From Heterodontus francisci (lineage: Eukaryota), in contig NC_090399.1 in NCBI RefSeq assembly GCF_036365525.1, positions 31,094,430 through 31,158,429 of the forward strand: a DNA stretch of 64,000 bases, in the 5' to 3' direction. Below, in pieces: positions 26,188-59,240 of this stretch. The notes beneath the pieces were generated by a model, which was given only the letters and a program-made list of their open reading frames with translations, searched no databases and was not told the origin of the DNA. Position numbers and translations under genes: made by a program. Each line of letters opens with the position of its first letter. The first letter of the stretch is position 1.

Positions 26188-26503
26188 CTGTCACAGCAAG
26201 TGTTGTTCCTTGCCCATAATATTCACCAGAGGCTATAAAATCCACTTTGCAATAATAGGTCGCCGAATCGCTCACTCTCACTTTTGTTAATTGAATCAAA
26301 GCATCAATCTGGCCCAATTACCCGGCCTCTGTATTCTGGCGTACTGTTGGAAAGTTCAGTTCCACCTTTACTGTTCCTGTACCACTTGCAATCACCTATT
26401 CCCCTAAGTCATTCGTACACACAGTACAGAACCGCCACCTTCACCTCGCTTATATTAATGTATGCCACGCTTTGAACAACTGTAACATTCTCAGCACTCA
26501 CTG
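26188..26503 (-). pseudogene. NCR3-like: NKp30/NCR3-like germline-joined VJ Ig exon (pseudo); not represented in the ORF track
   Basis: Acceptor cttttacag, donor gtgagc. (A)VSAENVTVVQSVAYINISEVKVAVLYCVYE*LRGIGDCKWYRNSKGGTELSNSTPEYRGRVIGPD / DALIQLTKVRVSDSATYYCKVDFIASGEYYGQGTTLAVT. Stop at 26411-26409; frameshifting deletion near 26306. Confidence 0.9.
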
Positions 26504-30380: not shown

Positions 30381-31800
30381 CACTTTATGAAATGTCCAAT
30401 TTGAATTATTTAATGAGGTTTTTTTTAACAATTTTTTTTGGGTGGGGGGGGGGAATAAAATAAAACGACGATGTTGCTTACGATGGTTCTGCAATTATAC
30501 CATAGGGAATATTTCCCATTTATATTTTAATAAACGCACAAATTAGGTGTTTGCACAATATCATTTTTTCGCTGACAATAATGATTGCTGATACATTGCA
30601 TTTTCACATGATGTCGCTAAGGCATTATAGAGTACGTTTCCGGCTGGCCATCCAGGCGTAAAACTGACTTGCACATCAATTACCTGCAACAGACGCAATT
30701 TGTATTTCCTTTGAAGTGTTACTTTTCATTTAGTGCTGAACTGAAAAATTAACTTGTCCATCTTCACCACGGATGTTGACGAGTCGACTCAATGTTTCGA
30801 GCATTTTTGCTTTTCTGTGAGCTTTCTGGCACCTGCCGAGGATTAAAAACAATGGGTATGCATAGTTCTCCAGTTATACGCCCCTGCTGAAATTCAGTTC
30901 CGTTGACTTCTATACAACTCAGTATTGGGTGAGTGGGATAACGGGTGGTAAAAGTGATTCCACCTGAAGTGCAACTTCAGTCATGTCCAATTTCATCTCT
31001 AATATATTTAATCTGCAGTCTATGCCAATCAGAATTGTCCTTTTTGTATTGCGATGTCCAAACACGTCTAAACACTGTAAAGCAAATCACATTGCTGTAG
31101 ATTTACCCTTGGCTTTCAGATCGGCTGCTCTTTATAGAAACCAGCATGATTTACATGTGCATTAAAATAAATGGAATGAAATTGGTCTTGGACTGCAGCA
31201 CAAAACGGGCGAATGGAAAATCGCAGGCAGTTTTACGTCCTGCCCATTTTCCATTGCTGTAACTTCAAGAGGAAAGAAAAGCATGTGCCCAAAACCAATT
31301 GTACCCCAAATGGGATGCAAATCAGACACCTTCTTTAACAAGCAATGGATTCACTCCACCAGGCAATGAACATGAACATTATCCTCTAGTAAGCCCTAAA
31401 ACTTGGCATGTGAGTATATTCAAACAGTTAATTTTTTTAAACTTCACTGTTTAAATTTTAACGATAGATAAACAACAGCACAGATAACAGCCCCAGTAAA
31501 AGAGTGGCCAGCGAACTAGGAGATTACTTTCATTGTGATAGAATTTCAGCTTTCCGCTAGGCATAAAGCTGGCATTGCAAATAGTCGCGATGAATGGATT
31601 TCAGGTTGGAAGCTTATAGCAGCAATACAATATTCAGTAAGGCACGATTACCCTTTATTCCCTGCAATTGTTGCTCTGTTGCTCACACTTATTCGAAATC
31701 TGACCGGTGTAAAATCTTGAAAAGGTCACATGTTCCATACAGTCACTCAAAGTTACAACTTCCAATCAGATACCAGATACTTTTTTTTTCTGATTTCCAC

Positions 31801-32103
31801 AAATTAACGCCAAGAAGTTCGTAGTTATTCAAAAGGTGCCCATGATTCTGGCAGAGGAAGGACAGGCAGTCTTCCTCCACTGTACCTACACAGCCAAGGC
31901 CTCCAAGGTGACAGGGTCTTACAGTTGGTACATGGACAGCAGGAAAGGCATAGAAGTTTCCAATGAACAAAGGACGGATCTACAGACACAAAAAGGATTT
32001 CTTTCATATTGGTGATGCGTCCAAACTACTAAAGGATGTGAAAGTGAACGATTGAGGCAACTAGGCGAGGAATATGGAGCAGGAACAAATCTCACCATGA
32101 GAG
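31801..32103 (+). pseudogene. NCR3-like: NKp30-like VJ exon V1 (pseudo; two deletions, YYC lost)
   Basis: INAKKFVVIQKVPMILAEEGQAVFLHCTYTAKASKVTGSYSWYMDSRKGIEVSNE / KGRIYRHKKDFFHIGDASKLLKDVKVND / RQLGEEYGAGTNLTMR-G; donor gtcagg. Acceptor position reads CAC. Confidence 0.9.
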
Positions 32104-32482
32104 GTCAGGCATTCTCTTGTCGGCTTGATGGGCTGGATGGCCTCCTCTTGCTCCAATGTTCCTATGCTATGTGGTTTGCTGTCAAAGTTTGCTTTTTAAT
32201 GCTCCTGCGAATTGTCTCAGGACGTTTTGCTACTGTTGAAGGCGCTAGGTAAATATAAATTGTTGTCATTGTCCAGTGATGGAAACAAGTTAATCAGCTT
32301 TTGCCTTAGTGCATAATTACATCGAATGTCCAGCACAGAATAGGCCATTCGGCCCAACCGTTCCATTCTAGTATTTATACTCTACACATGCCTGTTCCCA
32401 TTCCTCTTCATCAACATGCACGACTGTGTCTCAAAGTTCCAACTTCCAATCAGATAGCAGATACTTTTTTTCTGATTTCCAT

Positions 32483-32824
32483 GAATTAACACCGAGAATT
32501 TCACTGTTGTTCAAAAGGTGCCCAGGATTCTGGCAGAGGAAGGACGGACAGTCTTCCTCCCCTGTACTTACAGAGCCGAAATCTCCAACGTGACAGGGTG
32601 TTATAGCTGGTGCAAGGACAGCAGGAATGGCACAGAAGTTTCTAATGGGACAGCAGAGTATACAGGACAGATCTACAGACACAAAGAGGATTTCTTTCAT
32701 ACTGGATATGCGTCCATACTAATAAAGGACGTGAGAGTGAACGAGTCCGGGGCGTATTACTGCAGAGTGCGAATGATGCAACTGGGCGAGGAATATGGAG
32801 CAGGAACAAAGCTTACTGTGACAG
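32483..32824 (+). CDS. NCR3-like: NKp30/NCR3-like germline-joined VJ exon V2; open frame but non-canonical acceptor
   Basis: INTENFTVVQKVPRILAEEGRTVFLPCTYRAEISNVTGCYSWCKDSRNGTEVSNGTAEYTGQIYRHKEDFFHTGYASILIKDVRVNESGAYYCRVRMMQLGEEYGAGTKLTVT. Shares EG...FLPC, G.EV.NGT.E..G, I.DVR, Y.CRV...LG...G.GT.L.V with human NKp30 as recalled from memory. Acceptor position reads CAT; weak donor gtccgt. Confidence 0.85.
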
Positions 32825-33033
32825 GTCCGTCATTCTGCTATCTGAAATATCAGTTGAGCAATGGGAATGGGGGTGGGGTTGGGGGGAGAATCAATTGCAC
32901 AATGTGGTGGCCCTATCTCCAACTGGCGCATCTGTCAGAATGGCTGCCCTGTAGTGGACTCCCAAGACGGAATCAGCCTGAGCTGCAGAGAGGAGACTAT
33001 TTAATAATTTTAAATAACCAGTTCCTGACTGGA

Positions 33034-33372
33034 GGTCGCACAGTGGCATAGTGGTTAGCACCGCAACCTCACAGCTCCAGAGACCCAGGTTCAGTTCTGG
33101 GTGCTGCCTGTGCGGAGTTTGCAAGTTCTCCCTGTGACCGCATGGGTTTCCACAAGGTGCTCCGGTTTCCTCCCACATCCAAAGACTGCAGGTTGATAGG
33201 TAAATTGGCCATGGTAAATTGCCCTTAGTGTAGGTAGGTGGTCGGAGAATTGTGGGGATGTGGTCGGGAATATGGGATTAATGTAGGATTAGTATAAATG
33301 GGTGGTTGTTGGTCGGCACAGACTCGGTGGGCCGAAGGGCCCGTTTCAGTGCTGGATCTCTCTATGACTCTA
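33034..33372 (+). mobile_element. HE1-type V-SINE (tRNA head, V central domain, CR1-like tail)
   Basis: A-box-like tggcatagtgg, B-box-like ggttcagttc, V-domain ggagtttgcaagttctccctgtg...ggtgctccggtttcctcccaca, and tail gggccgaagggcc. Confidence 0.85.
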
Positions 33373-33641
33373 AAGTCACAAAGCATTTACCGCCTGTTAT
33401 ACCACACATGTGACATTCAGTGCTACTGAACTCAGTGAACTGAATATGGGTCCATGTATACAATGCACGACCAATGTAAAACCTTTTTTGCTTCATTTGT
33501 GCTGAAGAAAATAAGAACATAAGACACAGGAGCAGAAGTAGGCCATTCGTCCCATCGACCCTGCTTTGCCATTTAATAAGATCATGGCTGAACTGATTGT
33601 GGCCTTAACTCCACTTTTCTGTCAGGCCCCCATAAACTTTG

Positions 33642-34999
33642 TATAAAAGCAAAATACTGCGGATGCTGGAAATCTGAAATAAAAACAAGAAATGCTGGAA
33701 CCACTCAGCAGGTCTGGCAGCATCTGTGGAAAGAAAAGCAGAGATAACATTTCGGGTCAGTGACCCTTCATCGGAACTGACAAATATTAGAAAAGTCACA
33801 GGTTATGAGCAGGTGAGGTGGGGGTGGGGCAAGAAGTAACAAAGGAGGTCTAGATTGGACCAGGCCGCATAGCTGACCAAAAGGTCACGGGGCAAAGGCA
33901 AACAATATGTTAATAGTGTGTTGAAAGACAAAGCATTAGTACAAATTAGGTGTTAATACACTGAATATTGAACAGCAGCAAGTGCAAACCTGAAAAAAAA
34001 CAGTGAGTAAGCAAACTGAACAAACTAAGATGAAATGAAATAAATGCAAAAAAATAAGATTGTAAAAAATGTAAAAAAAGAATGTAAAAAGAAAGAAAAG
34101 AAAAATCACTAAAAATGAAAGTAAAATGGGGGGCTGTCATGCTCTGAAGTTATTGAACTCAATGTTCAGTCCGGCAGGCTGCAGTGTGCCTAATCGGTAG
34201 ATGAGATGCTGTTCCTCGAGCTTGCGTTGATGTTCACTGCAACACTGCAGCAATCCCAGGACAGAGATGTGAACATGAGAGCAGTGGGGAGTGTTGAAAT
34301 GGCAAGCAACCGGAAGCTCAGGGTCCTGCTTGCGAACCGAGCGGAGATGTTCCGCAAAGCGGTCACCCAGTCTGCGCTTGGCATTTCAACACTCCCCCCT
34401 GCTCTCATGCTCACATCCTCGGCCTGGGATTGCTGCAGTGTTCCAGTGAACATCAACGCAAGCTCGAGGAACAGCATCTCATTTACCGATTAGGCACACT
34501 ACAGCCTGCCGGACTGAACATTGAGTTCAATAATTTCAGAGCATGACAGCCCCCCATTTTACTTTCATTTTTAGTGATTTTTTTCCCCTTTCTTTTTACA
34601 TTCTTTTTTACATTTTTTACAATCTTTTTTTTGCATTTATTTCATTTCATCTTAGTTTGTTCAGTTGGCTTACTCACTGTTTTTTTCAGGTTTGCACTTG
34701 CTGCTGTTCAATATTCAGTGTATTAACACCTAATTTGTACTAATGCTTTGTCTTTCAACACACCATTAACATATTGTTTGCCTTTGCTCCGTGACCTTTT
34801 GGTCAGCTATGCAGCCTTGTCCAATCTAGACCTCCTTTGTTATCTCTTGCCCCACCCCCACCTCACTTGCTTATAACCTGTGACTTTTCTAATATTTGTC
34901 AGTTCCGATGAAGGGTCACTGACCCGAAATGTTAACTCTGCTTCTCTTTCCACAGATGCTGCCAGACCTGCTGAGTGGTTCCAGCATTTCTTGTTTTTA
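33642..34999. mobile_element. Palindromic Penelope-like (Neptune-type) insertion inside an old CR1 tail
   Basis: Arms of about 620 bp (33680-34301 vs 34382-34999) with an 80-bp spacer. Mirror ORFs 34190-34477(-) and 34206-34493(+). 14-bp TSD ccccataaactttg (33628-33641) / ccccataacctttg (35000-35013). Confidence 0.92.
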
Positions 35000-35333
35000 C
35001 CCCATAACCTTTGACTCGTTTGTAGATCAAAAATCTGTCTAACTCTGCGTTGAATATATTCAATGACCCAGCCTCCACTGCGGAAGAATTCTAAACACGT
35101 AATGTCCCTTTGAGAGAAGAAAGTCCTCCTCATCTCCATCTTAAATGGGAGAACCTTTATTTTGACAATAGCGGAGGAACCTCGGCATTAAAAACAGCAC
35201 ATGTTGGAAAGCAAACCTGTTGGTTGGTTACATATATCAAAAGATGTGCCGACAGAAACAAGTCCACTCTGAAAGCCGTCTGTTCCTGCACGGCTGTCAT
35301 AAAGTAGCAATTTTAAATTTATTTGGTTTCTCT

Positions 35334-35666
35334 GAATTAACGCCGAGTTCAGAGTTCTTCTGAAGTTGCTGAGTATTTAGGTTTTGGAAGGGAAGTCAGT
35401 GGTCATCCCCTGTCCCCACACAACCAACTCGTCTATTGGGAAGAAGAGTTATAGCTGGTACAAGAATGCCAGAAATGGAACAGAAGTTTCTAATGGAGAA
35501 GCAGAGTACAAAGGACAGATCTTTTGGCCCAAAGAAGAGGATTTTTTTAACGCTTCCATTCTAATAATGGTGGTTAGTGTGAACGATTCCGGGATATATT
35601 ACTGCAGCGTGAAAATGAGACGGCTCGACAAGGAATGTGGAGCAGGAACATATCTCACTGTGAGAG
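35334..35666 (+). pseudogene. NCR3-like: NKp30-like VJ exon V3 (one in-frame stop near the start)
   Basis: INAEFRVLLKLLSI*VLEGKSVVIPCPHTTNSSIGKKSYSWYKNARNGTEVSNGEAEYKGQIFWPKEEDFFNASILIMVVSVNDSGIYYCSVKMRRLDKECGAGTYLTVR-G; donor gtcagt. TAG at 35378-35380. Acceptor position reads TCT. Confidence 0.9.
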
Positions 35667-35944
35667 GTCAGTCATTCTCCTGTCTACAGTATCGTGCCCC
35701 ATAATATGGCTTTCCTTCCGACTGGCACCTCTGCCCAGAACGGCTGCCCTGTGGCAAATTCCAATTGTGGAATTGTGTCTCCGCTGCTGAGAGGAGACAA
35801 CTGAATCATTGGAAATAACTAATCACTGACCAGGAGTGAATTTTATTTGTCGAGAATGCAAACAATGGCCTTTGACAGCCGTTATAACAACATACCTGAA
35901 ATTCAGCTCCACTGAGTCAATGGAAGTTGATATTCTCTATGACT

Positions 35945-39410: not shown

Positions 39411-41655
39411 CATGCACGCAATATTCTAAGTGTGGCCTAACTAAAGTTCTGCAAAGCTGCAACATGACTTGCCAATATTTATACTCTATGCCCCGACCGA
39501 TGAAGGCAAGCATGCCGTATGCCTTCTTGACTGCCTTATCCACCTGCCTTGCCACTTTCAGTGACCTGTGGACCTGTACACCCAGATCTCTCTGCCTGTC
39601 AATACTCCTAAGGGTTCTGCCATTTACTGTATACCTCCCACCTGCATTAGACCTTCCAAAATGCATTACCTCACATTTGTCCGAATTAAACTCCATCTGC
39701 CATTTCTCTGCCCAAGCCTCCAACCGATCTATATCCTGCTGTATCCTCTGACAATCCTCAACATTTTCCGCAACTCCACCAACCATTGTGTCATCCACAA
39801 ACGTCCTAATCAGACCAGCTACATTTTCCTCCAAATAATTTATATATACTACAAACAGCAAAGGTCCCAGCACTGATCCCTGCGGAACACCACTCGTCAC
39901 ATCCCTCCATTCAGAAAAGCACCCTTCCACTGTTACCCTCTGTCTTCTGTGACCGAGCGAGTTCTGTATCCATCTTGCCAGCTCACCTCTGATCCCGTGT
40001 GACTTCACCTTTTGCACCAGTCTGCTATGCGGGACCTTGTCAAAGGCTTTACTAAAGTCCATATAGACAACATCCACCGCCCTTCCCTCATCGATCATCT
40101 TCGTCATTTCCTTAAAAAACTCAATCAAATTAGTAAGACACGACCTCCCCTTCACAAAACCATGCTTGCTCTCGCTAATAAGTTCGTTTGTTTCCAAATG
40201 GGAGTAAATCCTGTTCCGAAGAATCCTCTCTAATAGTTTCCCTACCACTGATGTAAGGCTCACCGGCCTATAATTTCCTGGATTATCCTTGCCACCCTTC
40301 TTAAACAAAGGAACAACATTGGCGATTCTCCAGTCCTCTGGGGCCTCACCTGTAGCCAATGAGGATGCAAAGATGTCTGTCAAGGCCCCAGCAATTTCTT
40401 CCCTTGCCTCCCTCAGTATTCTGGGGTAGATCCCATCAGGCCCTGGGGACATATCTACCTTAATGCTTCGCAAGACACCCAACACCTCCTCCTTTTTTAT
40501 AATGATATGACTGAGAATATCTGCACTCCCTTCCCTAGACTCATCATCCACCAAGTCCTTCTCCTTGGTGAATACTGATGCAAAGTACTCATTTAGCACC
40601 TCACCCATTTCCTCTGGCTCCACTCTCCCATCTCTGTCCTTGAGTGGGCCTACCCTTTCCCTGGTTACCCTCTTGCTCTTTGTAGTATATATAAATGATT
40701 TGGAAGAAAATGTAGCTGGTCTGATTAGTAAGTTTGTGGATGACACAAACGTTGGTGGAGTTGCGGACAGTGATGAGGATTGTCAGAGGATACAGCAGGA
40801 TATGGATCTGTTGGAGACTTGGGCAGTGAAATGGCAGATGGAGTTTAATTCGGACAATTGTGAGGTAATTCATTTTGGAAGGTCTAATGCAGGTGGGAAG
40901 TATAAAGTAAATGGCAGAACCCTTAGGAGTATTGACAGGCGGAGAGATCTGGGCGTACAGGTTCACAGGTCACTGAAAGTGGCAAGGCAGGTGGATAAGG
41001 TAGTCAAGAAGGCATACGGCATGCTTGCCTTCATCGGTCGGGGCACAGACCATAAAAATAGGCAAGTTATGTTGCAGCTGTAAAGAACTTTAGTTAGGCC
41101 ACACTTAGAATATTGCGTGCAATTCTGGTCGCCACACTATCAGAAGGAGGTGGAGGCTTTGGAGAGGGTACAGAAGAGGTTTACCAGGATGTTGCCTGGT
41201 CTGGAGGGCATTAGCTATGAGGAGAGGTTGGATAAACTCGGATTGTTCTCACTGGAACGACGGAGATGGAGGGGCGACATGATAGAGGTTTACAAAGTTA
41301 TGAGTGGCATGGACAGAGTGGATAGTCAGAAGCTTTTTCCCAGCCTGGAAGAGTAAGTTACTGGGGGACATAGGTTTAAGGTGAGAGGGGCAAAGTTTAG
41401 AGGGGATGTGCGAGGCAAGTTCTTTACACAGAGGGTGGTGAGTGCCTGGAACTTGTTGCCGGGGGAGGTGATGGACGCAGGTACCATAGAGACGTTATGA
41501 GGCATCTTGACAAATACATGAATAGGATGAGAATAGAGGGATTTGGACCCCGGAAGTGCAGAAGATTTTAGTTTAGGCAGGCATCAAGATCGGCGCAGGC
41601 TTGGAGAACCGAATGGCCTGTTCCTGTGCTGTACTGTTCTTTGTCCTTTGTTCTT
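39411..41655. mobile_element. CR1 LINE with inverted 5' segment (minus about 40672-39411; plus about 40673-41655)
   Basis: The minus ORF has RT from KRVTRERVGPL to RPHLEYCV. The plus part restarts at LLFVVYINDLEE and runs to the (TGTTCTT)n-like tail. Confidence 0.9.
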
Positions 41656-45079: not shown

Positions 45080-45993
45080 CTAATTAAGTTATCATGCCCA
45101 ACTTCTGCATTCTGAAAGGCATTTGTTCTAATGAAATGGCAATCGTCACGCATTTCCACCTTCACTGTTACCCTTTTGGCTTAAGCCTGAACTTTAAATT
45201 AATGTGTTGGATTAAGCAATAGCTTTCGGTGAACCCGCCCGTTGGGAAACTGCCAAGTTTGACATCCCGTCCGATTTTGCTGTCCACTGAAGGCATTGGA
45301 GAGCAATATTGGGCGAAGTGTAATATTGGTGCTCCACCCAGTCTCGTGGACTTTTCGCGCCGCGAGTTAGGTTGAAATTACCCAGTTAAAAGTGGTTTGG
45401 CAGTTTCAAGAAATTGGACGATCTGGGGCGATGCATTCCATTCTGATTTTTAAAAAAATCATGGGCCTTACTGGCTGATGCATTGAATTACCATATTCTC
45501 TTCTCCGCTTTGGGAGGTAGGGTAAAAACCCAGCACATTCCTATAAAAGACTAAACTTGTAAAAATAAACGCCACAACATTTATATGTAACAAATCACAC
45601 ACTGATTTTCACAGCTCACGTAGAGTGGATGTGCAAACGGCTGTTAAAATAAGATTTTTAAAAATAAATTATTATCTGATGCCTCGGGATTTCCCATAGT
45701 CTCCACTTTACAGTCGCTTCATTGACTGTGAAGCACTTTGTGACGTCCTGAGGTCGTGATGGCAGCTGTACAAAGGCAAGCTGTTTGTTTTACAAAAGGA
45801 CATTAAAAAAGAAATAAAATGTAACTGCGCCACATGGGGTGACATCACACCAGATTGGCTGCTGCGTTCAAACCCGAAAACTGGCTCCAAGACAGATCTT
45901 CGCTGACACATTCGCTCAGCAGCCCAGTGCACTGGTCTGAATCTATTCCGATTACCTGCGTAAATTATGAAAATCAACAGTGTAATATATTCA

Positions 45994-48390
45994 TATAATA
46001 AAAGCAAAATACTGCGGATGCTGGAAATCTGAAATAAAAACAAGAAATGCTGGAATCACTCAGCAGGTCTGGAAGCATCTGTGGAAAGAGAAGCAGAGTT
46101 AACGTTTCGGGTCAGTGACCCTTCATTGGAACTGACATATATTAGAAAAGTGACAGATTATAAGCAAGTGAGGTGGGGGTGGGGCAAGAGATAACAAAGG
46201 AGAAGGTGTAGATTGGACCATGCCACATAGCTGACCAAAAGGTCACGGAGCAAAGGCAAACAATATGTTAATGGTGTGTTGAAAGACAAAGCATTAGCAC
46301 AGATTAGGTGTAAATACACTGAATATTGAACAGCAGCAAGTGCGAACCTGAAATAAAACAGTGGGTAAGCAAACTGAACAAACTAAGATGAAATGAAATA
46401 AATGCAAAAAAAAGATTGTAAAAAATGTAAAAAAGAATGTAAAAACAAGGAAGAAAAAATAACTAAAAATGAAAGTAAAATGGGGGTGCTGTCATGCTCT
46501 GAAATTATTGAACTCAATGTTCAGTCCGGCGGGCTGTAGTGTGCCTAATTGGTAGATGAGATGCTGTTCCTCGAGCTTGCGTTGATGTTCACTGGAACAC
46601 TGCAGCAATCCCAGGACAAAGATGAAAGGAGTGTTTGGGGCCTGGGATAGTGAGGAGAGAGGAGGTAAATGGGCAGGTATTACACCTCCTGCGATTGCAG
46701 GGGAAGGTGCCCTGGGACAGGGACGAGGTGGTGGGGGTAATGGAGGAGTGGACCAGGGTGTCACAGAGGGAATGATCCCTTTGGAATGCTGACAGAGGAA
46801 GGGAGGGGAAGATGCGACTGGTAGTGGCATCACGCTGGTGGTGGCGAAAATGGCGGAGGATGATCCTTTGGATATGGAGGCTGGTGGGATGAAAAGTGAG
46901 GACAAGGGGAACCCTGTCACGGTTCTGGGAGGGAGGGGAAGGGGTACGGGTAGAGGTGCGGGGAACGGGTCAGACACGGTTGAGGGCCCTGTCAACCACA
47001 GTGGGGGGAAATCCTCGGTTGAGGAAAAAGGAGGTCATATCAGAAGCACCGTCATGGAAGGTAGCATCATCAGATCAGATGCATCAGAGACGGAGAAACT
47101 GGGAGAATGGAATGAAGTCCTTACAGGAGGTAGGGTGTGAAGAAGTGTAGTCGAGGTAGCTGTGGGAGTCGGTGGGCTTATAATGGATGTTTGTAGAAAA
47201 CCTATCGCCAGAGATGGAGACAGTGAAGTCGAGGAAGGGAAGGGAAGTGTCAGAGATGGACCATGTAAAGGTGAGAGAAGGGTGGAAATTGGAAGCAAAG
47301 TTGATATAGTTTTCTAGTTCAGGGCAGGAGCAGGAAACGGCACCGATACAGTCATCAATGTATCGGAAAAAGAGTTGGGGGAGGGTGTCTGAATAGGACT
47401 GGAACAAAGAATGCTCGACATATCCCACAAAAAGACAGGCATAACTAGGACCCATGCGGGTACCCATAGCGACATCTTTTACTTGAAGGAAGTGCGTGGA
47501 GTTGAAGGAGAAGTTGTTCAATGTGAGAACAAGTTCAGCCAGGCGGAGGAGGGTGATGGTGGATGGGGACTGGTTGGGCCTCTGTTCCAGGAAGAAGCGG
47601 AGCGCCCTCAAACTATCCTGGTGGGGGAATGGAGGTGTAGAGTGATTGGACGTCCATAGTGAAGAGGAGGCGGTTGGGACTAGGAAACTGGAAATTGTCA
47701 AAATGCCGTAGGGCATCAGAAGAGTCATGGATGTAGGTGGGAAGAGACTGGACCAGCGGAGAAAAGATAGAGTCTAGGTAGGAAGAAATAAGTTCAGTAG
47801 GGCAGGAGCAGGCTGACACAATGGGTCTGCCGGGACAGTCCCGTTTGTGGATTTTGGGAAGGAGGTAGAAGCGGGCTGTCCAGGGTTGCGGGACTATGAG
47901 GTTGGAAGCTGTAGAGGGAAGATCTCCAGAGGAGATGAGGTCAGTGACATTCCTTTGGATGGTGGCTTGATGTTTAGTGGTGGGGTCATGGTCCAGAGGG
48001 AGGTAGGAAGAGGTGTCTGTGAGTTGGCGTTGAGCTTCTGCAAGGTAGAGGTCGGTACGCCATACAACAACAGTACCACCCTTGTCTGCAGGTTTGATGA
48101 CCATGTCGGGGTTAGACCTGAGAGAACGGAGTGCCTCAAGTTCAGAGGGTGACAGGTTAGAGTGAGTGAGGGGGGCAGAGAAATTGAGACGACCAATGTC
48201 TCGGCGACAGTTTTCAATGAAGAGATCAAGAGCGGGTAAGAGGCCAGGGTGAGGGGTCCAGGTAGAGGGAGAATGCTGGAGGCGGGTGAATGGGTCTGCT
48301 GGTCGTGGGAGAAGGGTCACTGACCCGAAACGTTAACTCTGCTACTCTTTCCACAGATGCTGCCAGACCTGCTGAGTGATTCCAGCATTT
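45994..48390 (-). mobile_element. Penelope-like element (Neptune-type): RT, Cys linker, partly deleted GIY-YIG endonuclease, inverted partial terminal repeat at the 5' end
   Basis: IKPADKGG.VVVW, FYLLPKIHK...GRPIVS, MDVQSLYTSIP, AMGTRMGPSYACLF, FRYIDD, PCNRRRCNTCP. Perfect 15-bp TSD agtgtaatatattca (45979-45993 / 48391-48405). Inverted repeat at about 48310-48390. Confidence 0.95.
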
Positions 48391-51109
48391 AGTGTAATAT
48401 ATTCAACTCGTTTAAACAGTACAGCTTGAACACTGCTAAATGTGATCCTGCTTAATGTCATCCTATAACTTTCAAGGTTAACTCAAAGTATCAATAGCGT
48501 ATTTGAATTAGAAACTTCGCCAACAAGTCGTTAATTGCTTCTACATTTTAATTATGGTGTCAGAACCTGGTCTGCAGTGTACCTGGATACGCCATGCAAC
48601 TATGTGTGGATCACCCTGGTGTTTGCATTATTCGAACGCTTAATCAGACATCTGGGTGACCACAAAATGTCCCTTGCTAAATAGTTTACTATTTTAGCTC
48701 ATGTCAAATTTGGAGGCGGTGGTGACAGTGATTATGGACAATTGCTATAATGTATATTTATAAAATTAATTTCATTTTGCAGAAACCATATAAATGCCAC
48801 ATGGTAATCAGGCAGCTTTGAATGAAACGGTTTATTTATTCCATCTCATCTCCTCTATCCTGAATAACATTTCTGCAGACTTCCCGTAATAGTATCCAGC
48901 TGTTCCCTCACCGAACCTTCCAGAAATCTTCCTGGTCATATGTTCCAGCTGCTGATTACTGTCTGTGCAGAAATACCTATTGCTAATCAAACACTGATCT
49001 TTAACCTGAACTGGTTCATATTCGTAAACTTAAATGCCAACTTAATGCACATAAATGAAGGGTACAATCATTGCTCTCTTACCTGATTCATTGACATGGT
49101 TTGAGGCTTAGGGTTAAGTCACGCTGTGAATTGAATGAGAAAGAAGTGTGTGCAAAGAGCATAACGTTTCTACCCCACAAAGAAAGAATCTGAGAATATA
49201 GATTTCAAATTCTAATTTATTTAACCTTGCATCGATATATTGTTGCCGTTTGAAAAAAAAAAACGCACCGGTATTTTGATTCTAGTGATTGGCAGTAGAT
49301 TATTCATGAAAGTTTGTCTGCAGGGTTGCGGTGAAAGAGAAGGGGAGTGGGACATATTGGATAGCTCTTTCAAAGAGCCAGCACAGAGCAAAGGGACGAA
49401 TGGCCTCCTTCTGTGCTGGATCATTCTATGATAGTAGCAAGATCGTGAGAGCAGGACAATTTCAGCTCCTTCTCCAAAGGATGCGTCATTCTCATTTGGG
49501 TATATACCCCATTTATTTTATATGTGCTGTGTCAAAATCCTGAAAATACCTATCCAGTACCATTGTGGTAGCTCTATCGCCATAGGGACTGCAGATGCAC
49601 AAGAAAAAGATTTATTATTACCTTCTCGGAACAACTAAGAATGGATCAAATATGTGGTCCTGTTAACATTACCAAACAAATTTAAAAATCATACAGTGAC
49701 ATTACATAGAATTTGTTGGATTTTGCAGTGACAATGTTGGCAAAACCATTAATGCTCACCGTCATTACTCCACTGAAGCTGACAACAACTTTGGAGATCG
49801 CACACGTGCAGAATAACAGAAATGCAGAAGTTGCTGCCAGTAATTCTACACTTCTACAGAGGATGTGCTGTTGAGGCTCTCCCAGGCTGCATTTAAGGGG
49901 ATATCACTGAAATGACCAGAGATTCCACTCTTTGTCTTTTACTCACCCCTGTAAAGGCCTTTGAACAGGTACACCTTGTTGAATTAAATGTAATTGGGTT
50001 TTTATCAGGGTTGTAACTTCATAGTTTACTGCTAAAATCCTTCACTGACCCTGAAAACCTAATTTTGTATTTGTGCAATGTTAAATTGCTCCATAAGGAT
50101 AAAATTAAAATAATATTTTCAAAATTTATTTATCTTTATTTTAGCTTTTGTCGTACACCAATCATTAATCATTCATTTTTTCTATCTGAATTATCAACTT
50201 AAAGATGACGGTTTTAGAGCTTTTAACTTCCTGGTTTGCTGTCTGCGAGAATACTTCAATGCAATTGGATGCTTACCTTGCGTGTTGCTATCCCCGCAGT
50301 TGCACGTCTGGAGTTCCTTTGGATTTAGCGCCACATACAAACTGACAAAGGGAAATTTGGTGCCTCCGAGATTGCAAGATATGGACAGCTTGATTCGAAG
50401 GCAGCAAAATATGAACCAATGAATTATATGATATTGTCACGCAGCACAAGCTGACTCACGTGTCTTTAGACAAACCTCTCATGAGCTCTCCAAAGCCAGC
50501 ATTGCCTTTTGAGCTTCCAGCTATTTTATGATAACGCTGAGTGAGAATGGCAACAAGGACTCAATTTGTACCAAATTACAGATCGTTTGGTCCTCATGCG
50601 ATGATGGGGTAGAAACTCGCCTGTGGGGCGTGTGCAGGGAAGCACAAAATATTGGACGTATTGGATCGACCTGTGGTTTCCTCCATGGACTTCAATAAAA
50701 CCTAATATTAAGCAGGATGTATAATTGTTGGGAAACCGCTTATTCTGTCCAAATTGAAATTGTACACGGATAAAAGGCCTCAGTACTTAGAGACATTAGG
50801 GCGGGCAAAGACATATTCAATAAGTAACACGTTAGGGTTAGGGTTAGTTGTCTTAAATTCAGGAGGTTACAGGACAAAGCTAATAATAAAGCAGCCTGTT
50901 CCCCCCAAAGAATGTTCTTCTTGTGTATATTCACCTGTTGCGTTAAGCTCCTCATATTCAAAATCTTGCCTACAAAAATAAAGGGGACATTTTACATGGC
51001 TTAAGAATAAAATATACTTCAAGAAAATAGTTCAAATTTGATTGCTTGCTAACTTCCAGCAAGTTGGATATAAACAAATCTTTAGAACATCAATGTAAGT
51101 TTGCTGTTA

Positions 51110-51950
51110 TTTTTGGGGTTATGTGGGCGTTGCTGGCGAGGCCAGCATTTATTGCCCATCTCTAATTGCCCTTGAGAAAGGTGTGGTGATCTGCCTTCTT
51201 GAACTGCTGCAGTCCTTGGGGTGTAGGTACACCCACAGTGCTGTTAAGGAAGGGAGTTCCGGGATTTTGCCCAGCAACAGTGAAGAGAGAGCAATATAGT
51301 TCCAAGTCAGACTTAAGTGGATATGTGGATAGTCTGGGAAAAAGACATTGAAGTGGATGATCAGCCATGATCATATTGAATGGCAGAACAGGCTAGATGG
51401 GCTGAAGGTCCTACTCCTGCTCCTATGTTCCTATGTCCCTATGTTCCTAAGTTATTATGGTGTGTGGCTTGGAGGGGAATTTGCAGGTGGTGGTGTTCCT
51501 ATGCATCGCTGCCCCTGTGCTTCCAGGTGGTAGAGGTCACGGGTTTTGAAGGTGTTGTCAATGGTGCCTTGGTGAGTTGCTGCAGTGCATCTTGTATATG
51601 GTAAACACTGCTGCCACTGTCCATCGGTGGCGAAGGGAGTGAATATTGAAGGTGTTGATGGGGTACAAATCAAAAGTGATGCTTTGTCCTGGAAGGTGTT
51701 AAGCTTCTTGAGTATTGTTGGAGTTGCACCTATCTAGGCAAGTGGGCACTATTCCGCCGTACTCCTGATTTGTGCCTTGCAGATGGTGGACAGGCAATGG
51801 GGAGCCAGGAGCTGAGTTACCAGCCTTTGAATTCCCAGACCTGGACCTGTTCTTGTAGACACAGCATTTATGTGGCTGGTTGAGTTCAGTTTCTGGTCAA
51901 TGGTGGCACCCAGAATGTTGATTGTGGGAGTTTCAGCGATGTTAATCCCA
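51110..51950 (-). mobile_element. CR1/L2-group LINE fragment with a nested CR1 tail (about 51310-51450)
   Basis: TINILGATIDQKLN.TSHIN, LQQFKKADHH.FLKGN, and the shared family tail. Confidence 0.8.
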
Positions 51951-54479
51951 CGTGGGATCCAGGAATCTAACCTACATCTTCTAAAGTAGCACACTGATAG
52001 TGTGTTTCTTCACAATTAATGAAGAGTCTAACTCATTGTCAACTTCCTGTAATTCCACAAAGTCTTTCATTTTCACAGTTGACGAAAGTCAGAAGATTAT
52101 CATACTTGAGTAATAAGTTGTTGGGAAACTGAATCCAGCCTGGCACCTCGTGGTCACAACCTGTCACAGAAATCTACAACAATAACTGCTGTCACACAGG
52201 CTTGGGCTAAAATCGTGATTGCAGGAAACAAGGCTTTTGGACAGGAAGTCCATGTGTAGTCCAGTACTTTTTAATGATATATAACAGAGCGAAGTGGCTT
52301 AATTCCTTAACTGTGTTATTTAGTATCCTCTGGAACTGGAGAAATAAAGATTTCTTTCTGACCTATTCATCGCTATGGTGTCAAAACAAAAATTAAAAGA
52401 AGCCTAACCTAAAATTGGTTTCAACAAAATCTAATTTAGAGAAATTCTTGACTCACTCTAAATCACCACGTTCTGAAATCGCGTTCAGAGAAGGTCGTTG
52501 TTGAAAATAATTTATCTGTATCTCCGTGTATTGGATGCAGTCTCTTGTAGTTTTCTGTTTAAATAGAAAGATTAGATTAGACCGGATTGGTCAGACATGA
52601 TGTGCCCTACACAGGCCCCCATGTTGACATGCTTTTATTTGTTGATGTTTGTGCAAGTGATCAGTCATTCTATCTCTTTAAATTGGCATTAAGAAGGAAA
52701 GTTACCCGAAATGTGGTAGATTTGGAGAAAAAAAATTACCAGGTGATATAATCAAACTGCAAAGTATGGATGAGCTCAAACAATTACTAGATATATATTT
52801 TGTAGAAACAGAGTAGGGATGGAGTGATATGATGAAAACCTTTGATATCAGATAAAGATTTGGACTTCTTGGCCCTCTTACCCTCTTCCACTTCTTAACA
52901 AGATCACATAGTCTTAAAAGTAAATATTTTCAGATATTTAATTTTTACATTATATCAACATAGGTAGTTGCGAAATATATTACTGTATGAAATCCATCCA
53001 TTTGATACAGTTAACAGATTATGTTCTGTTGTGTTGTGCCGTTGCTACTACAGAAAAGCTTTATAGGATTTATGGACAAAGTGCATCTGATCAGTTTCCT
53101 AAAACCTATGATTTTGAAAGTGTAATTTGATCAGGTGGAACATGTGTCAAATCACGTGTGTTAATGGTGAGAGTTCTGCCTCGAAAGGCATTGTTCGTGA
53201 TAAACTGTACACTTAATATTGCTGCCTACCTGATTCTGTGAGTTGATTGGAGAAGTTTCGGCATCTACAAGTACAAAATATAATGTATAATTAAATGCCA
53301 ATGGAGTTTAATACAAAAAGGCAAAGCCCAAGTTTCAGATTGATAGATTAATGTTTGATTGGAAATAGGTGGATAGGTAAATAGAGAGAGACCATCGAAT
53401 TATCTGAGGTACAGCTCAGCCATAATCTAATTGAATGGCAGAGCAGGCTCCAGGGGTTGAATGACCTATTCCTATTTCTATGTTTCTATAACGTCTGATC
53501 ATGCCTCTCAGGGTGTCCAGGGCTCTTCTCAGAGTGTTACTCACTGGGAGTCTAATCACGATTGTTACAAAGGTAATGAAATAGCACGAGTCCAGAAACA
53601 GCAATAAGATAACTGACCAATTCATAATGTTTATATTTGTCTGTGTGTTTGTATGTGTGGGTGTGTTTCATTAATGAGCTTTAGGTAGAATGCTGAAATC
53701 ATGCTTTGCTGTTTTGTTTTCAAGCATCCACTACGTCCATATGACCAAATAGGCAGGGCTTGGTCTAACCTCCTGCAAAAGATAGAACATCTGTCAATGC
53801 AGAACTCTCTCATTGCTACACGAAGCCACAATTATCTACTGAACCTTTGAAGCAGAACTTAATACTGCAATATTGTGGTTCAAAAGCAAGAGCACTTCCA
53901 ATTGAATCAAACTGACACAAAGCAGGCTAATCACCAACAGGCACAAACACATTTGTATAAAGTTTCTCTGCCATTCATTACAAGCTGGCAATAGCTGTAA
54001 TACATCATGGAAGCAAATAAATTAAAATAGCAAGCAAAATAGTTGGATACAAATAGATTAAGCATTCCTATATAATAATTTCAAACCTATAACAAACGAA
54101 TTGTTATAACTGGAGACAACATTCATCTGATTTACCACATAAAGGCAGATAGTTACTGTAATGGTTGCTCCATTTTGTGTTCATTAAAATGAAGGATACT
54201 TCCATTTTTGTTACGTTCAGTGTTAGGTAAAGCATGGGTACAACGTAGATCTCAAGAAAGTACCTCCGGTGAAACATTTCCATTTCCCACAACAGCCATT
54301 TTCTCTGGCGTGACGGGTGTGGGTTGGGTGGTGGGGGGTAATTGTCGATTTAGTAGCAGAGATTGAATTGAGATTAAGAGATTTGATTGAGGCTCCTCAA
54401 ACTCATTTCATTTATCACAATTAGACCCAACACTGGGGGAGGATTTAGTTTATATGTCTGGACTGAACTCCATTTTTTA

Positions 54480-54825
54480 CATTTGTTTCTGGGATATGGG
54501 CGGCGCTGAATTGGCCAGCATTTATTGCACATCCCTAATTGCCCGTGAAACGAGATGCTTGCTGCACCATTTTAGAGGGCATTACAGAGTCAAGTACATT
54601 GCTGTGGGTCTGGAGTCACATGTAGGCCAGACTTGGTAAGGACAGCAGATTTCCTTCCCTAAAGGGCATTAGTGAACCAGATGGGTTTTGCGACAATCTA
54701 CAATAGTTTCATGGTCACCATTAGACTAGCTTTTTAAAATTCCTGCTTTATTAATTGAATGCAAATTAGCCTGGGCACTGGATTACTAGTCCAGTGGCAT
54801 TACTGCTTTGCCACGGCCTCCCCTA
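54480..54825 (-). mobile_element. tRNA-headed SINE whose tail matches the CR1/L2-group family
   Basis: Tail ggccagcatttattgcacatccctaattgccc matches the LINE tails at 38.2, 51.1 and 56.1 kb. tRNA-like head near 54770-54825. Confidence 0.6.
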
Positions 54826-54900
54826 AATCAAGATAGTTCATGTAATGTTCTGCAACACAAACTCCTTTCTATGCTCATTCAGGATAGCGCCGGTTTACTG

Positions 54901-55312
54901 TCAGCTGCGGCTCAGTGAGTGCTATTCTGTCATCATTGAGACATAAATCTGTGGGTTCATGCCCCACTCCAGATACTTGCACATGAAATAAAGGTGATAC
55001 TGGAGTGCAGTTTTGAGGAACTGTTGTATTATTGGAGGTGCTATTTGTCGGGTGAATGTTTAAACCAGGGTAGGGGTAAAATTTCCCATGACACTATTTT
55101 GAAGAACAGGGGAGTTCTCTCTGGGGCACTGGCCAATATGCTCCCCTCAAACAAAATTACTGAACCTCATCATAACCACACTGCTGTTTATGGGACCGTG
55201 CTATGCACAAAGTAGTATTTCTTATAGTGCATCAATGGCTACACGTTAAAAGTACTTTGTCGGCTGTAAAGCACATTTAGGCCTCTTGGGATTGTGAAAT
55301 GCAAGTTTCTTA
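54901..55312 (+). mobile_element. Deu-SINE (SacSINE1/AmnSINE1-like)
   Basis: Deu-domain-like blocks catgacactattttgaagaacaggggagttctc...ctggccaatat..ccctcaa, tgctgtttatgggacc.tgctatgcacaaa, and tail aaagtacttt..ggctgtaaagc. Confidence 0.75.
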
Positions 55313-56074
55313 TGACACTGGAGCAGAATCTTATCATATCACACGTACTTGAGGATATCTAATTCCAGAAGGTCTTACAGTCGCTGATAAAATATTTAAG
55401 GGGAAGAAGAGGAAGACTGAGGAGGCCCGTGTCAGCCTGTGGAAGTGTAATCTTTGCGATAATTCTAATGAACACAATACTTTGTTCGGCATGCCGAAAC
55501 ATATAAATTTATTCATTTTGAGTTACTTGCCCATCACGTTAAAAAACGAATGATTGAATTCCTTTACGCTGTTTGGGAAAAAAAAAAGAAAGAATGTCAT
55601 GAATTATAAACAGAGAAGGGAAAATGAGCACACTCAGTTCTACATTTAATTTTGTACAGCTAGCTTAGTATTAGATTGGACTGTCCAAGTCGAAGACTGT
55701 AAATGCACCAGGCAATGTGAACCTGTTCCCAGAGACTTAAGCGTCAATGCTTCCAACGTCAGAAGGACCATAGAAAACTCGCAGGGAAGAACGACAGGCA
55801 ATAATAAAGGAAACGTAGGCACTCCATGCAACAAGAGTAGCGGCCAATCTCAAAATGTCTAGCCTTGCCTACCAACCCTACCTTAAATGGCCAACACTGC
55901 CAAAAGACTTTAATCTTCAACAACATAATGCAACCTTCCCATTGTCTGCAATAACAGCAACAGGCACATTGGGAGAAATCTTACACTAGTGGGAGGTGCA
56001 CCAGTTCAGAGGGAATGCCAGTGTTGCATCCTGCCCAATCGTACTCTCCATGGAATTATTTTTTATTATTATTA

Positions 56075-57420
56075 TTCATTCATGGAATGTAGGCGTCACT
56101 GGCTTTGCCAGCAATTATTGCCCATCCCTAATTGCCCTTGAGAAGGTGGTGGTAAGCCGCCTTCTTGAACCGCTGCAGTCCATGTGAGGTAGGTACACCC
56201 ACAGTGCTGTGAGGGAGGGAGTTCCAGGATTTTGACCCAGCGACAGTGAAGGAAGAGCGATATAGTTCCAAGTCAGGATGGTGTGTGACTTGGACGGGAA
56301 CTTGCAGGTGGTGATGTTCCCATGCATCTGTTGCTCTTGTCCTTCGAGGTTGTTGAGGTCGCGGATTTGGTAGGTGCTGTCTAAGGAGCCTTGGTGCCTT
56401 GCTGCAGTGCATCTTGTAGATGGTACACACTGCTGCCACTGTGCATTGGTGGTGGAGGGAGTGAATGTTTGTGGATGGTGTGCCAATCAAGCGGGCTGCT
56501 TTGTTCTGGTTGGTGTGGAGTTTCTGGACTGTTGTGGAGCTGCACCCATCCAGGCAAGTGGAAAGTATTCCATCACACTTCTGACTTGTGCCTTGTAGAT
56601 GGTGGAAAAGCTTTGGGGAGTTAGGAGGTGAGTTACTAGCCGCAGGATTCCTAACCTCTGAGCTACTTTTGTGGCCATGGTATCTATATGGCTACTCCAG
56701 TTCAGTTTCTGGTCAATGGTAACCCCTAGGATATTGATAGTGGGGGATTCAGCGAAGGTAATGCCACTGAATGTCAAGGGGAGATGGTTAGATTCTCTCT
56801 TGTTGGAGATGGACATTGCCTGGCACTTGTGTAGCGCAAATGTTACTTGCCACTTATCAGCCCAAGCCTGGATTAGAACATTACAGTGCAGTACAGGCCC
56901 TTCGGCCCTCGATGTTGCGCCAACCTGTGAAACCATCTGACCTGCACTATTCCATATTGTCCAGGTCTTACTGCATTTCTACACGGTCTGCTTCAGTATC
57001 TGAGGAGTCGTGAATGGTGCTGAACATTGTGCAATCATCAGCAAACATCCCCACTTGTGATCTTAGGATTGAAGGAAGGTCATTGATGAAGCAGCTGAAG
57101 ATGGTTGGGCCTAGGACACTACCCTGAGGAGCTCCTGCAGTGATGTCCTGGAGCTCAGATTATTGACTTCCAACAACCACAGCCATCTTCCTTTGCACTA
57201 GGTATGACTCCAACCAGCAGAGTGTTTTCTCCCGATTCACATTGACTCCAGTTTTGCTCTGGCTCCTTGATGCCATACTCGGTGAAATGCTGCCTTGATG
57301 TCAAGGGCAGTCACTCTCACCTCACCTCTTGAGTTCAGCTCTTCTGTCCATGTTTTGAACCAAGGCTGCAATGAGGTCAGGAGCTGAGTGGCCCTGGCAG
57401 AACCCAAAATGCGCATCACT
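56075..57420 (-). mobile_element. CR1/L2-group LINE 3' part with a small CR1-tail insertion (about 56872-56955)
   Basis: ALDIKAAFHRVWH, WADKWQVTF..HKCQAM, IYKAQVRSVMEY, HSLHHQCTVAAVCTIYKMH, SWNSLP. Confidence 0.9.
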
Positions 57421-59054
57421 GAAATGAGCAGCAAATGGGCCGTAAAATTAGGTGGTGTGTAAAAGTTGCTTTATCCTGATGGGTAGGTCAATTGTCCCAT
57501 TGGTTTTACACCCTGTTTGATTAAATTCCCTATTGCAGAGTAATGTAGGGCATGAAGTAAACAGGCATTCCACTGATGCTATGTGTTTCCCGCCTTATGC
57601 TAAAATTAGCACCCATTTCATCTATCTGTACCGATGCATAAGAAAAATGATGCCAAATCTTTGCTAATATGAAAATTAGTGTAATATTCAGGACGACGAA
57701 ATCAAACATAAAGTGGAATGCGGAATAAAATGAAACAGATATTGCACATATCGGTTAAAAGGCATAGTAAAATGACCAGGATGAAATTCAACTTCCTTGG
57801 ACGTGTGGAACAGCAGCCTGTTCTACCTGCATTGATTTCAATTGGAAAATAAAGCTGGCAGAGTGTATTAACGGGTGGCTGTACATTTAGCACCCATTTT
57901 AAGACCCCATGGGTAAGGTTCATGCTCAAGTGTCTTAAGCAGGACACAGAGATGCACAGTTATGACTGTTGGGATCGTGCTGCACCATCTAAGTAACCCA
58001 CATGCGAACCAGCTCCTATGAACATCCCTGGTCTCCTTGATCTACAATAGTGAACAATCTTTCATATGAAAGTTTCAACAAGCTCAACACCAACAGTGCA
58101 CAACTCGTGTTGAACCCACTGGGATATAAATTTGCCTTGGTGCATCGTATTAAATGGATGGTATCACCTCGCCTGCCTTTGTAAAGCCCACTTGATATTA
58201 AAGGCTATTGAAGGCTATCACATGCCTGTAATATTGTTTTGCCCACTTTGTAACAGAGTCTTTAGCCAATTTAAAATAAACCAGTTAATGCTTCGCAGCG
58301 TTCAGATGAAAGAGTTAAATATTGGTCTGTCAATAGCGGAAATCATCATTTCTAGCTTATATCTTTTAAGATAAAACAAAAACGTTGAAGTGGCTCAATA
58401 TATTTTGGATGATTCAGTGGGCATGTAATGCAAAATCCTGGCCAATGCAACATTATTTTATCTTCCTCCCCCATGATGCAATGTTGCACTCGTACATCAG
58501 GGTACAGCAGCGGCCATAGGTGCAGTAGATACAAAAAAAAAAGAAGAAATAAGAACAGGAGCAGACCATATAGCCCATCGAGGCCGCTGCACAATTCAAA
58601 ATGATCATAGGATTCAACTCCACTTTCCAGGCCCCTCAACGCCCCCTTGATTCCCTGAGAGACCAAAAATCTATCTTACCCAGTTTCAAATGTATTCAAC
58701 GATGGAGCAGCCACAACCCTCGGGAGTAGAGAATTCCAAATATTCACAACACTTTGAGTGAAGTAATTTCTCCTCATTTCAGTTCTAAATGATTTGTCCT
58801 GTATCCTGAGACTATGCCTCATGTTTTAAATTCCCCGACCAGCAGAAGCAATCGCTCACTGTCTACCCTATCCAGTTCCTTTAAAATCTGATATGTCTCT
58901 TTGTTTATAGAATCAATTCTTTTAATTTACCCAACAGTTTTTCATGTAAAACTAGTTAATCTTCATTTTCAGCACAAAGGATAGCTTTTGAATAATAAGT
59001 TGTATAAAATAAGTTTCACCACCATTTTGCCACACTTGAGAGCAATTATATCAT

Positions 59055-59240
59055 CTCATCCACGCTCATGCAATCCCCTCCCTCCCATGCCATCCCCAAC
59101 CCATGCCATTCCATCCTCTCCATGCCATCCCTCTCATGCCACCCCATCCCATTCCTTCCATCCCTCCCATACCATCCCTATCCCGCTATTTCCATCCCCA
59201 TCCCCTCCATTAATCTCATCCTATCCCTTACAGACACAAT
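59055..59240 (+). repeat. Pyrimidine-rich degenerate (CCAT/CCCAT) low-complexity tract
   Basis: Direct reading. It accounts for the Pro/His/Ser-rich ORFs at 58988-59349. Confidence 0.8.

Follow-up and report, generated by a model that had tools for sequence, protein, structure and literature searches.

Tandem V exons without splice acceptors in the horn shark: probable remains of a three-V NCR3/NKp30-like gene

In a 64,000-nucleotide stretch of the horn shark genome (Heterodontus francisci; C29:31,094,430-31,158,429, C29 being contig NC_090399.1; hereafter the window), three tandem V-type exons with J-like ends (VJ exons V1, V2 and V3) lie on the plus strand, and each lacks the AG of its splice acceptor while the second is open throughout. 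How did three neighboring exons come to lack the same signal, and does the open frame of one of them reflect function? A sequence-only reading had proposed that the AG was lost once, through a decaying CpG, before triplication of the exon, and that the array now uses shifted acceptors, serves as a donor of gene conversion or simply decays. Our analysis confirmed the three exons and the absence of AG at each (AC, AT and CT), and it supports the last of these outcomes. We hold with good confidence that a three-V NCR3/NKp30-like gene, with V1-V3 as its ectodomain exons, lies broken here, devoid of leader, transmembrane (TM) exon and all three acceptors, and that it was likely activating and paired with inhibitory-type genes on the opposite strand. 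Its decay was most likely ordinary.

The V exons and the missing leader and TM exons

The 464 kb around the window contain 20 NCR3/NKp30-like VJ exons of subfamilies A (9), B (6), C (4) and D (1). A unit of ~60 kb is present four times (U1, which is the window, U2, U3 and U4), with noncoding distances mostly of 0.17-0.20. The genes of each unit are C (minus strand), P (plus strand) and G (minus strand), the last of them whole or as its tail. V1-V3 belong to the P gene of U1, for which the following features were delineated.

31801-32103, plus strand: V1, A-type NCR3-like VJ exon; AC for the acceptor AG (31799-31800), deletions of 11 and 29 nt, YYC gone, donor GTCAGG
32483-32824, plus strand: V2, A-type VJ exon; AT for the acceptor AG (32481-32482), 113 codons open, R62Q and D87E, donor GTCCGT
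35334-35666, plus strand: V3, B-type VJ exon; CT for the acceptor AG (35332-35333), one TAG, donor GTCAGT
31746-35693, plus strand: ectodomain block, comprising V1-V3 with pieces of intron and broken up by repeats; the order is that of the intact three-V gene on the minus strand at C29:31,475,825-31,478,845
30836-30840, plus strand: deletion junction, with 2.7-2.9 kb gone relative to U2 and U4; the absent piece holds a plus-strand leader exon
39413-41650: repeat-derived sequence where U3 and U4 carry 8.3 and 10.2 kb with an Arg-bearing TM exon, which the window lacks

V2 encodes a V-set domain (Pfam V-set, 1.9e-10) and the J-like GxGT end within a single exon. Its top match among solved structures was human NCR3/NKp30 (E 5e-15), the next family being at 1.6e-4 (search scores, 19 matches), and a protein search at near length and E 1e-12 returned no match. 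V2 is altered at R62 and D87, which we take to be the salt bridge pair of V-set domains. Both residues are invariant in all six intact A and B exons and in seven yardstick domains, namely five domains from other sharks and the C and D exons. The GT donors are kept in all three exons of the window. That V2 is fully open and that V3 has a single stop had been seen in the sequence-only reading, which missed the two deletions and the loss of YYC in V1; this exon is frameshifted.

Inspection of the sequence between V1, V2 and V3 found no leader or TM exon, in agreement with that reading. The piece absent from the window does contain the leader exon, intact, on the plus strand and with a phase-1 donor. 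This P-gene leader is kept in two of the three sister units, the Arg-bearing plus-strand TM exon is kept in all three (U2, U3 and U4), and a short candidate tail exon follows in the P genes of U2 and U3. Genome-wide searches returned two matches to the P-type leader and three to the P-type TM exon, none of them in U1. The charged Arg of an NCR3/NKp30-like TM segment is lacking from the window copy because the TM exon itself is absent. The idea of an inverted fragment that was dead from birth was dropped once leader and TM exons turned up in the sister units.

With its introns kept, its leader, TM exon and three acceptors lost, V1 frameshifted and V3 interrupted by a stop, the V1-V3 gene is, as judged by sequence, an unprocessed pseudogene. 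We class it as an NKp30-like pseudogene with three V exons, likely of the activating type. The intact ancestor would have spliced leader-V1-V2-V3-TM through phase-1 junctions and would have signaled, as NKp30 does, through an adaptor of the ITAM type (immunoreceptor tyrosine-based activation motif). After the loss of function, the exons would have drifted without selection, with each acceptor hit separately, and V2 would still be open by chance.

Two sister P genes differ from the window copy in what they retain. That of U2 (C29:31,236,737-31,246,370, L038-L039) looks intact, with a leader, one V exon with AG, an Arg-bearing TM exon and a short candidate tail. Its V exon is A-type in sequence and is followed by a 3′ flank of the B type, a combination that suggests three V exons were reduced to one by an internal deletion; one contig of run X1 (see below) fits it by difference count, and protein searches yielded no matching protein. 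The P gene of U4 (C29:31,428,990-31,439,760, L058-L059) keeps its leader and TM exon, but the 5′ part of its A exon is gone and, in place of AG, its open B exon reads GG. A transcript skipping from leader to TM exon is possible for this gene. The window also contains two long inverted repeats, at 33680-34999 and 39413-41121 (320 nt at 97% and 449 nt at 93%), which are copies of repeat families; the second, within 39413-41121, sits at the site of the missing TM segment.

Acceptor history, selection and transcripts

The proposed ancestral CpG did not withstand comparison with the other exons of the cluster. Because all six A-type exons other than V1 and V2 with an intact 5′ end read ctgattt(c/t)cAG/GA, and three of the five B-type exons other than V3 read tttctAG/G (the remaining two share GG), the reconstructed ancestral acceptor is a normal AG/G site and not a CpG. 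In-frame TGA codons are present, as described, at 31791, 32482 and 35333; that at 31791 consists of ordinary intron letters also present in intact copies.

A single loss of AG before triplication is likewise contradicted. A clade of V1, V2 and V3 was rejected by the approximately unbiased (AU) test (p = 0.00018), V3 being of the B type and V1 and V2 of the A type, and the lesions at the three sites differ. A clade of V1 and V2 was not rejected on the exons alone (p = 0.39), but their 3′ introns are of different types. Comparison was made with G4, an intact gene on the minus strand ~350 kb away (C29:31.475-31.481 Mb), whose V exons are in the order A-A-B with AG at all three; the annotated protein P0002 (leader, V-V-V, TM) maps to it. 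For the intron that follows V1, the sole match (305 nt, 85%) is the one behind the first V of G4; the intron that follows V2 matches the one behind the second V. Because G4 keeps AG at both sites, these matches argue that the exons stood in tandem before the acceptors were lost. In a narrower version of the idea, which may still hold, V1 and V2 alone would have had a common CpG intermediate by way of a short local conversion. A change of AG to AC creates a CpG, and decay of this CpG would yield the readings of V1 and V2 if such a conversion had joined them. The two exons have in common a minority letter 21 nt upstream, among two such letters in total; 10 other pairs share at least two. CpG sites in these sequences change about twice as often as others.

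Selection was assessed by counting changes relative to the column majority. V1-V3 had 58 nonsynonymous and 14 synonymous changes (ratio of nonsynonymous to synonymous rates, dN/dS or w, of 1.4-1.6), versus 80 and 39 in six intact exons (w 0.7-0.8; one-sided Fisher p = 0.03). By this crude count, V1-V3 appear to be under no purifying selection. Neither the selection count nor the conversion count includes exons A_31350 and B_31349, which nearly duplicate A_31392 and B_31391. Simulated neutral decay left a V2-like exon open 5-16% of the time, and an open V2 is thus not unusual under neutral decay. Longer constraint on V2 than on V1 was considered and not seen, both exons having 18 nonsynonymous and 5 synonymous changes.

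Conversion tracts were looked for among the germline exons with a permutation test on runs of agreement, and none was found (best global p of 0.78 for eight A exons and 0.17 for five B exons). The longest identical runs with any paralogue were of 28, 37 and 45 nt.

Among the sequencing runs listed for V2 there was no RNA run. Contigs from runs X1-X3 (one sample, RNA by guess) were aligned at 80% likeness. The contigs of X2 and X3 do not cover the exons. Three of the five listed X1 pieces on V2 start exactly at 32483. Difference counts fit paralogues, with record 2 assigned to the P gene of U2 (39/39), record 1 to G1 (46 versus 45, three gaps), record 5 to G3 (19/19) and record 8, on V3, to G4 (18/18). 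Because the pieces start at 32483 and their counts fit paralogues, the latter use the original acceptor position. None of the contigs that cover 14 listed V2 sites has V2's own letters, a result that is not evidence, as contigs cannot show absence.

Competing explanations

Several observations weigh against ordinary decay of an activating gene. Three independent neutral hits on AG have a probability of about 0.003-0.005, although this feature was chosen post hoc. In the three broken P genes, all six V exons lack their acceptor (five by substitution, one by deletion), versus none of the five broken minus-strand exons (Fisher 0.002 raw, 0.008-0.03 after merging shared events), and plain decay does not predict acceptor loss confined to P genes. 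Taken exon by exon, the dN/dS count, crude in itself, carries little weight, and two intact exons also have w of at least 1. One X1 contig (record 4, 445 nt, window 32649-32825) differs from V2 at 9 of 177 positions, a span over which the nearest assembled paralogue differs at 15. It is not V2, because it has a non-V2 letter at all six listed V2-private sites within its span; it may be an allele absent from the assembly, and it seems to continue into an A_31477-like exon. As for the activating function of the P genes, we infer it from the TM Arg and the short tail only.

The asymmetry in acceptor loss is what a variant of the preferred reading would explain, namely that the gene shed its domains stepwise before it died. 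Loss of an acceptor skips one phase 1-1 exon in frame and would leave a shorter working receptor as long as leader and TM exon exist, while a stop or frameshift in an included exon kills; V3 and V1 would have gone first and V2 last. The retained GT donors fit this scheme, as does the state of the B domain, which is absent or broken in six of the seven other A/B-type cluster genes and is left out of annotated proteins P0007 and P0008. Of the three exons, V2 has suffered least, and U4 keeps leader and TM exon with both V acceptors gone. However, the equal counts of V2 and V1 and the changes of V2 at invariant positions give no sign of clearly longer constraint, and the pattern was spotted post hoc from four or five events. 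Such shedding is possible but on balance doubtful.

The remaining explanations assign V1-V3 a function or question their reality. A maintained array of leaderless pseudo-V exons that pass sequence to the working genes through gene conversion, in the way that avian pseudo-V segments do and SIGLEC16P did, would accord with copies that are leaderless and inverted relative to the G genes, with a V block common to P and G genes without common leader introns, TM segments or tails, which speaks for an old exchange, and with the unexplained V2-like contig piece. It is nevertheless improbable: no significant tract was detected, the trees of the A and of the B exons are star-like, the A exons are 82-88% identical to one another apart from one recent pair, w is not below 1, leaderlessness goes back to a mapped deletion, and the V2-like contig lacks all of V2's listed private letters. 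That contig and the copy variability of the locus might instead point to an artefact of assembly or haplotype, with the lesions being errors or private to one haplotype. We judge this very improbable, as the 464 kb contain no N letters, the lesions are many and of different kinds, the flanks of the window are ~17% diverged from the sister units and the deletion junctions are co-linear. Hardly credible is an expressed multi-V receptor with shifted acceptors. V2 is open, the donors are intact and an AG (as GAG or AAG) occurs 14 nt into each exon; yet all three +14 sites are out of frame with the phase-1 donors, the first in-frame AG of V2 is at +54 and removes 18 residues, V1 is frameshifted, V3 has a stop, and the unit has neither leader nor TM exon. 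Of the corresponding proposal in the sequence-only reading, the multi-V ancestor stands and the shifted acceptor does not.

Paired genes, known systems and the wider cluster

In the broken three-V gene as we read it, the ectodomain block at 31746-35693 is shared between P and G genes (intron distance about 0.15-0.17). Their leaders are ~70% alike, and their leader introns, TM segments and tails do not align. From this contrast with the shared V block we infer that activating and inhibitory partners swapped the ectodomain block long ago, as is described for SIGLEC11/16 (PMC5701461). G genes encode Arg-less TMs and long tails. Tails were scored with what we take to be the consensus of the immunoreceptor tyrosine-based inhibitory motif (ITIM), and ITIM-like motifs were found in those of P0005-P0008 and not in that of P0002. 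Similar ectodomains thus occur in one cluster in forms with an Arg-bearing TM and short candidate tail and in forms with an ITIM-like tail. From its sequence the cluster looks like a set of paired activating/inhibitory multi-V receptors that share an ectodomain block.

Comparison with known systems supports the family assignment and delimits it. According to PMC6514059, NKp30 signals via a TM Arg, and the human protein has one V domain. The shark genes resemble NCR3/NKp30 in their single-exon VJ, their best structure match, their linkage to the major histocompatibility complex (MHC) and the TM Arg of the sister P genes; unlike it, the window gene had three V exons and is broken, and its neighbors encode TMs devoid of Arg together with long tails that bear ITIM-like motifs. 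Mouse Ncr3 is a pseudogene by the same source (PMC6514059), and likewise represents the loss of an activating NKp30-type gene; it is single-copy, whereas the shark gene is one dead copy among several in a cluster. According to PMC5701461, SIGLEC11 and SIGLEC16P are alike in the ectodomain region only and the activating partner is often nonfunctional. The putative shark partners of activating and inhibitory type are alike in the same region, with a broken activating-type copy, but their shared block is ~15% diverged with no recent conversion detectable. Avian immunoglobulin loci have pseudo-V segments in opposite orientation to the working gene, as in constructs (PMC3837002), and somatic conversion driven by AID (PMC449846). 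The shark copies, too, are leaderless and opposite in orientation to working genes; unlike the avian ones, they lost their leader by one mapped deletion, keep introns, and have neither constraint nor tracts. The charged-TM/ITIM-tail arrangement is known from mammalian paired receptors. We know of no AID-driven somatic conversion in NCR3 genes. Kinlein 2021, Flajnik 2012, Ohta 2019, and Ohta and Flajnik 2015 reportedly describe a number of NCR3 subtypes in sharks and, in Xenopus, an expanded cluster of NKp30 genes; this work may already cover multi-V or ITIM forms. A literature search that did not extend to the main shark NCR3 papers turned up no pairing or multi-V forms of shark NCR3. For nurse shark NCR3, eight accessions are listed in PMC12227049.

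As posed, the finding is ordinary birth and death in an immune gene cluster. It has value as a marker: NKp30-like genes of sharks can have three V domains and occur both with a charged TM and with an ITIM-bearing tail, the two forms lying on opposite strands. For tests of opposite signaling in the oldest lineage with adaptive immunity, the intact P gene of U2 and the G gene with three V exons provide a ready pair. A broader and rather unlikely scenario is that the horn shark MHC region holds paired activating and inhibitory NKp30-like receptors that have between one and three V domains, that traded an entire ectodomain block in the past and whose activating members shed V domains singly by acceptor loss, with the exons skipped in frame, before dying. 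If true, splice-acceptor mutation would be a repeated route to tune, and then retire, activating receptors of natural killer (NK) cells.

White shark, basking shark and catshark also have multi-V relatives by annotation; judged by these sequences, the multi-V architecture is not private to Heterodontus francisci. The tandem V domains of P0003 (white shark) and P0013 (basking shark) are near-identical within each gene, versus ~15% diverged in the horn shark, which suggests recent homogenization in that lineage.

A genome search with V2 gave 33 matches, 32 of them on C29. MHC class I exons are on C29 too (most of 64 matches), the nearest at 32.07 Mb, ~0.9 Mb away. Annotated Heterodontus francisci proteins map to the cluster exon by exon. 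Exons of two neighboring genes also lie in the window.

26188-26503, minus strand: C-type VJ exon of the adjoining gene, broken (deletion, stops, frameshift), with AG and GT intact
45848-60024, minus strand: cytoplasmic-tail exons of neighbor gene G1, with an ITIM-like IQYTEI exon at 52456-52557; leader, V and TM exons lie outside the window

The first of these had served as the reference exon in the sequence-only reading, where its own frameshift and stops went unnoticed. C-type genes have a broken V exon in three of four cases; the U2 copy has a candidate leader, an open V, an Arg-less TM and an ITIM-like tail exon. G2 and G3 (C29:31,349,674-31,352,049 and 31,391,463-31,393,816) are a recent, near-identical duplication (99% in exons). 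Their B exons carry a TAA with AG intact and are skipped in the annotated proteins, and the G3 tail matches C-gene tail exons, suggesting a chimera. Outside the window, the D-type V exon (C29:31,082,954-31,083,277, L013, minus strand) is open and has GCAAG in place of GT, possibly marking a GC-AG intron; ~6 kb downstream is a candidate Arg-bearing TM (ILWYIRAGIIV) whose pattern is close to that of NKp30. More open NCR3-like V exons are found elsewhere on C29, in a 10-match cluster at 14.9-15.4 Mb and as two exons at 31.93-31.96 Mb.

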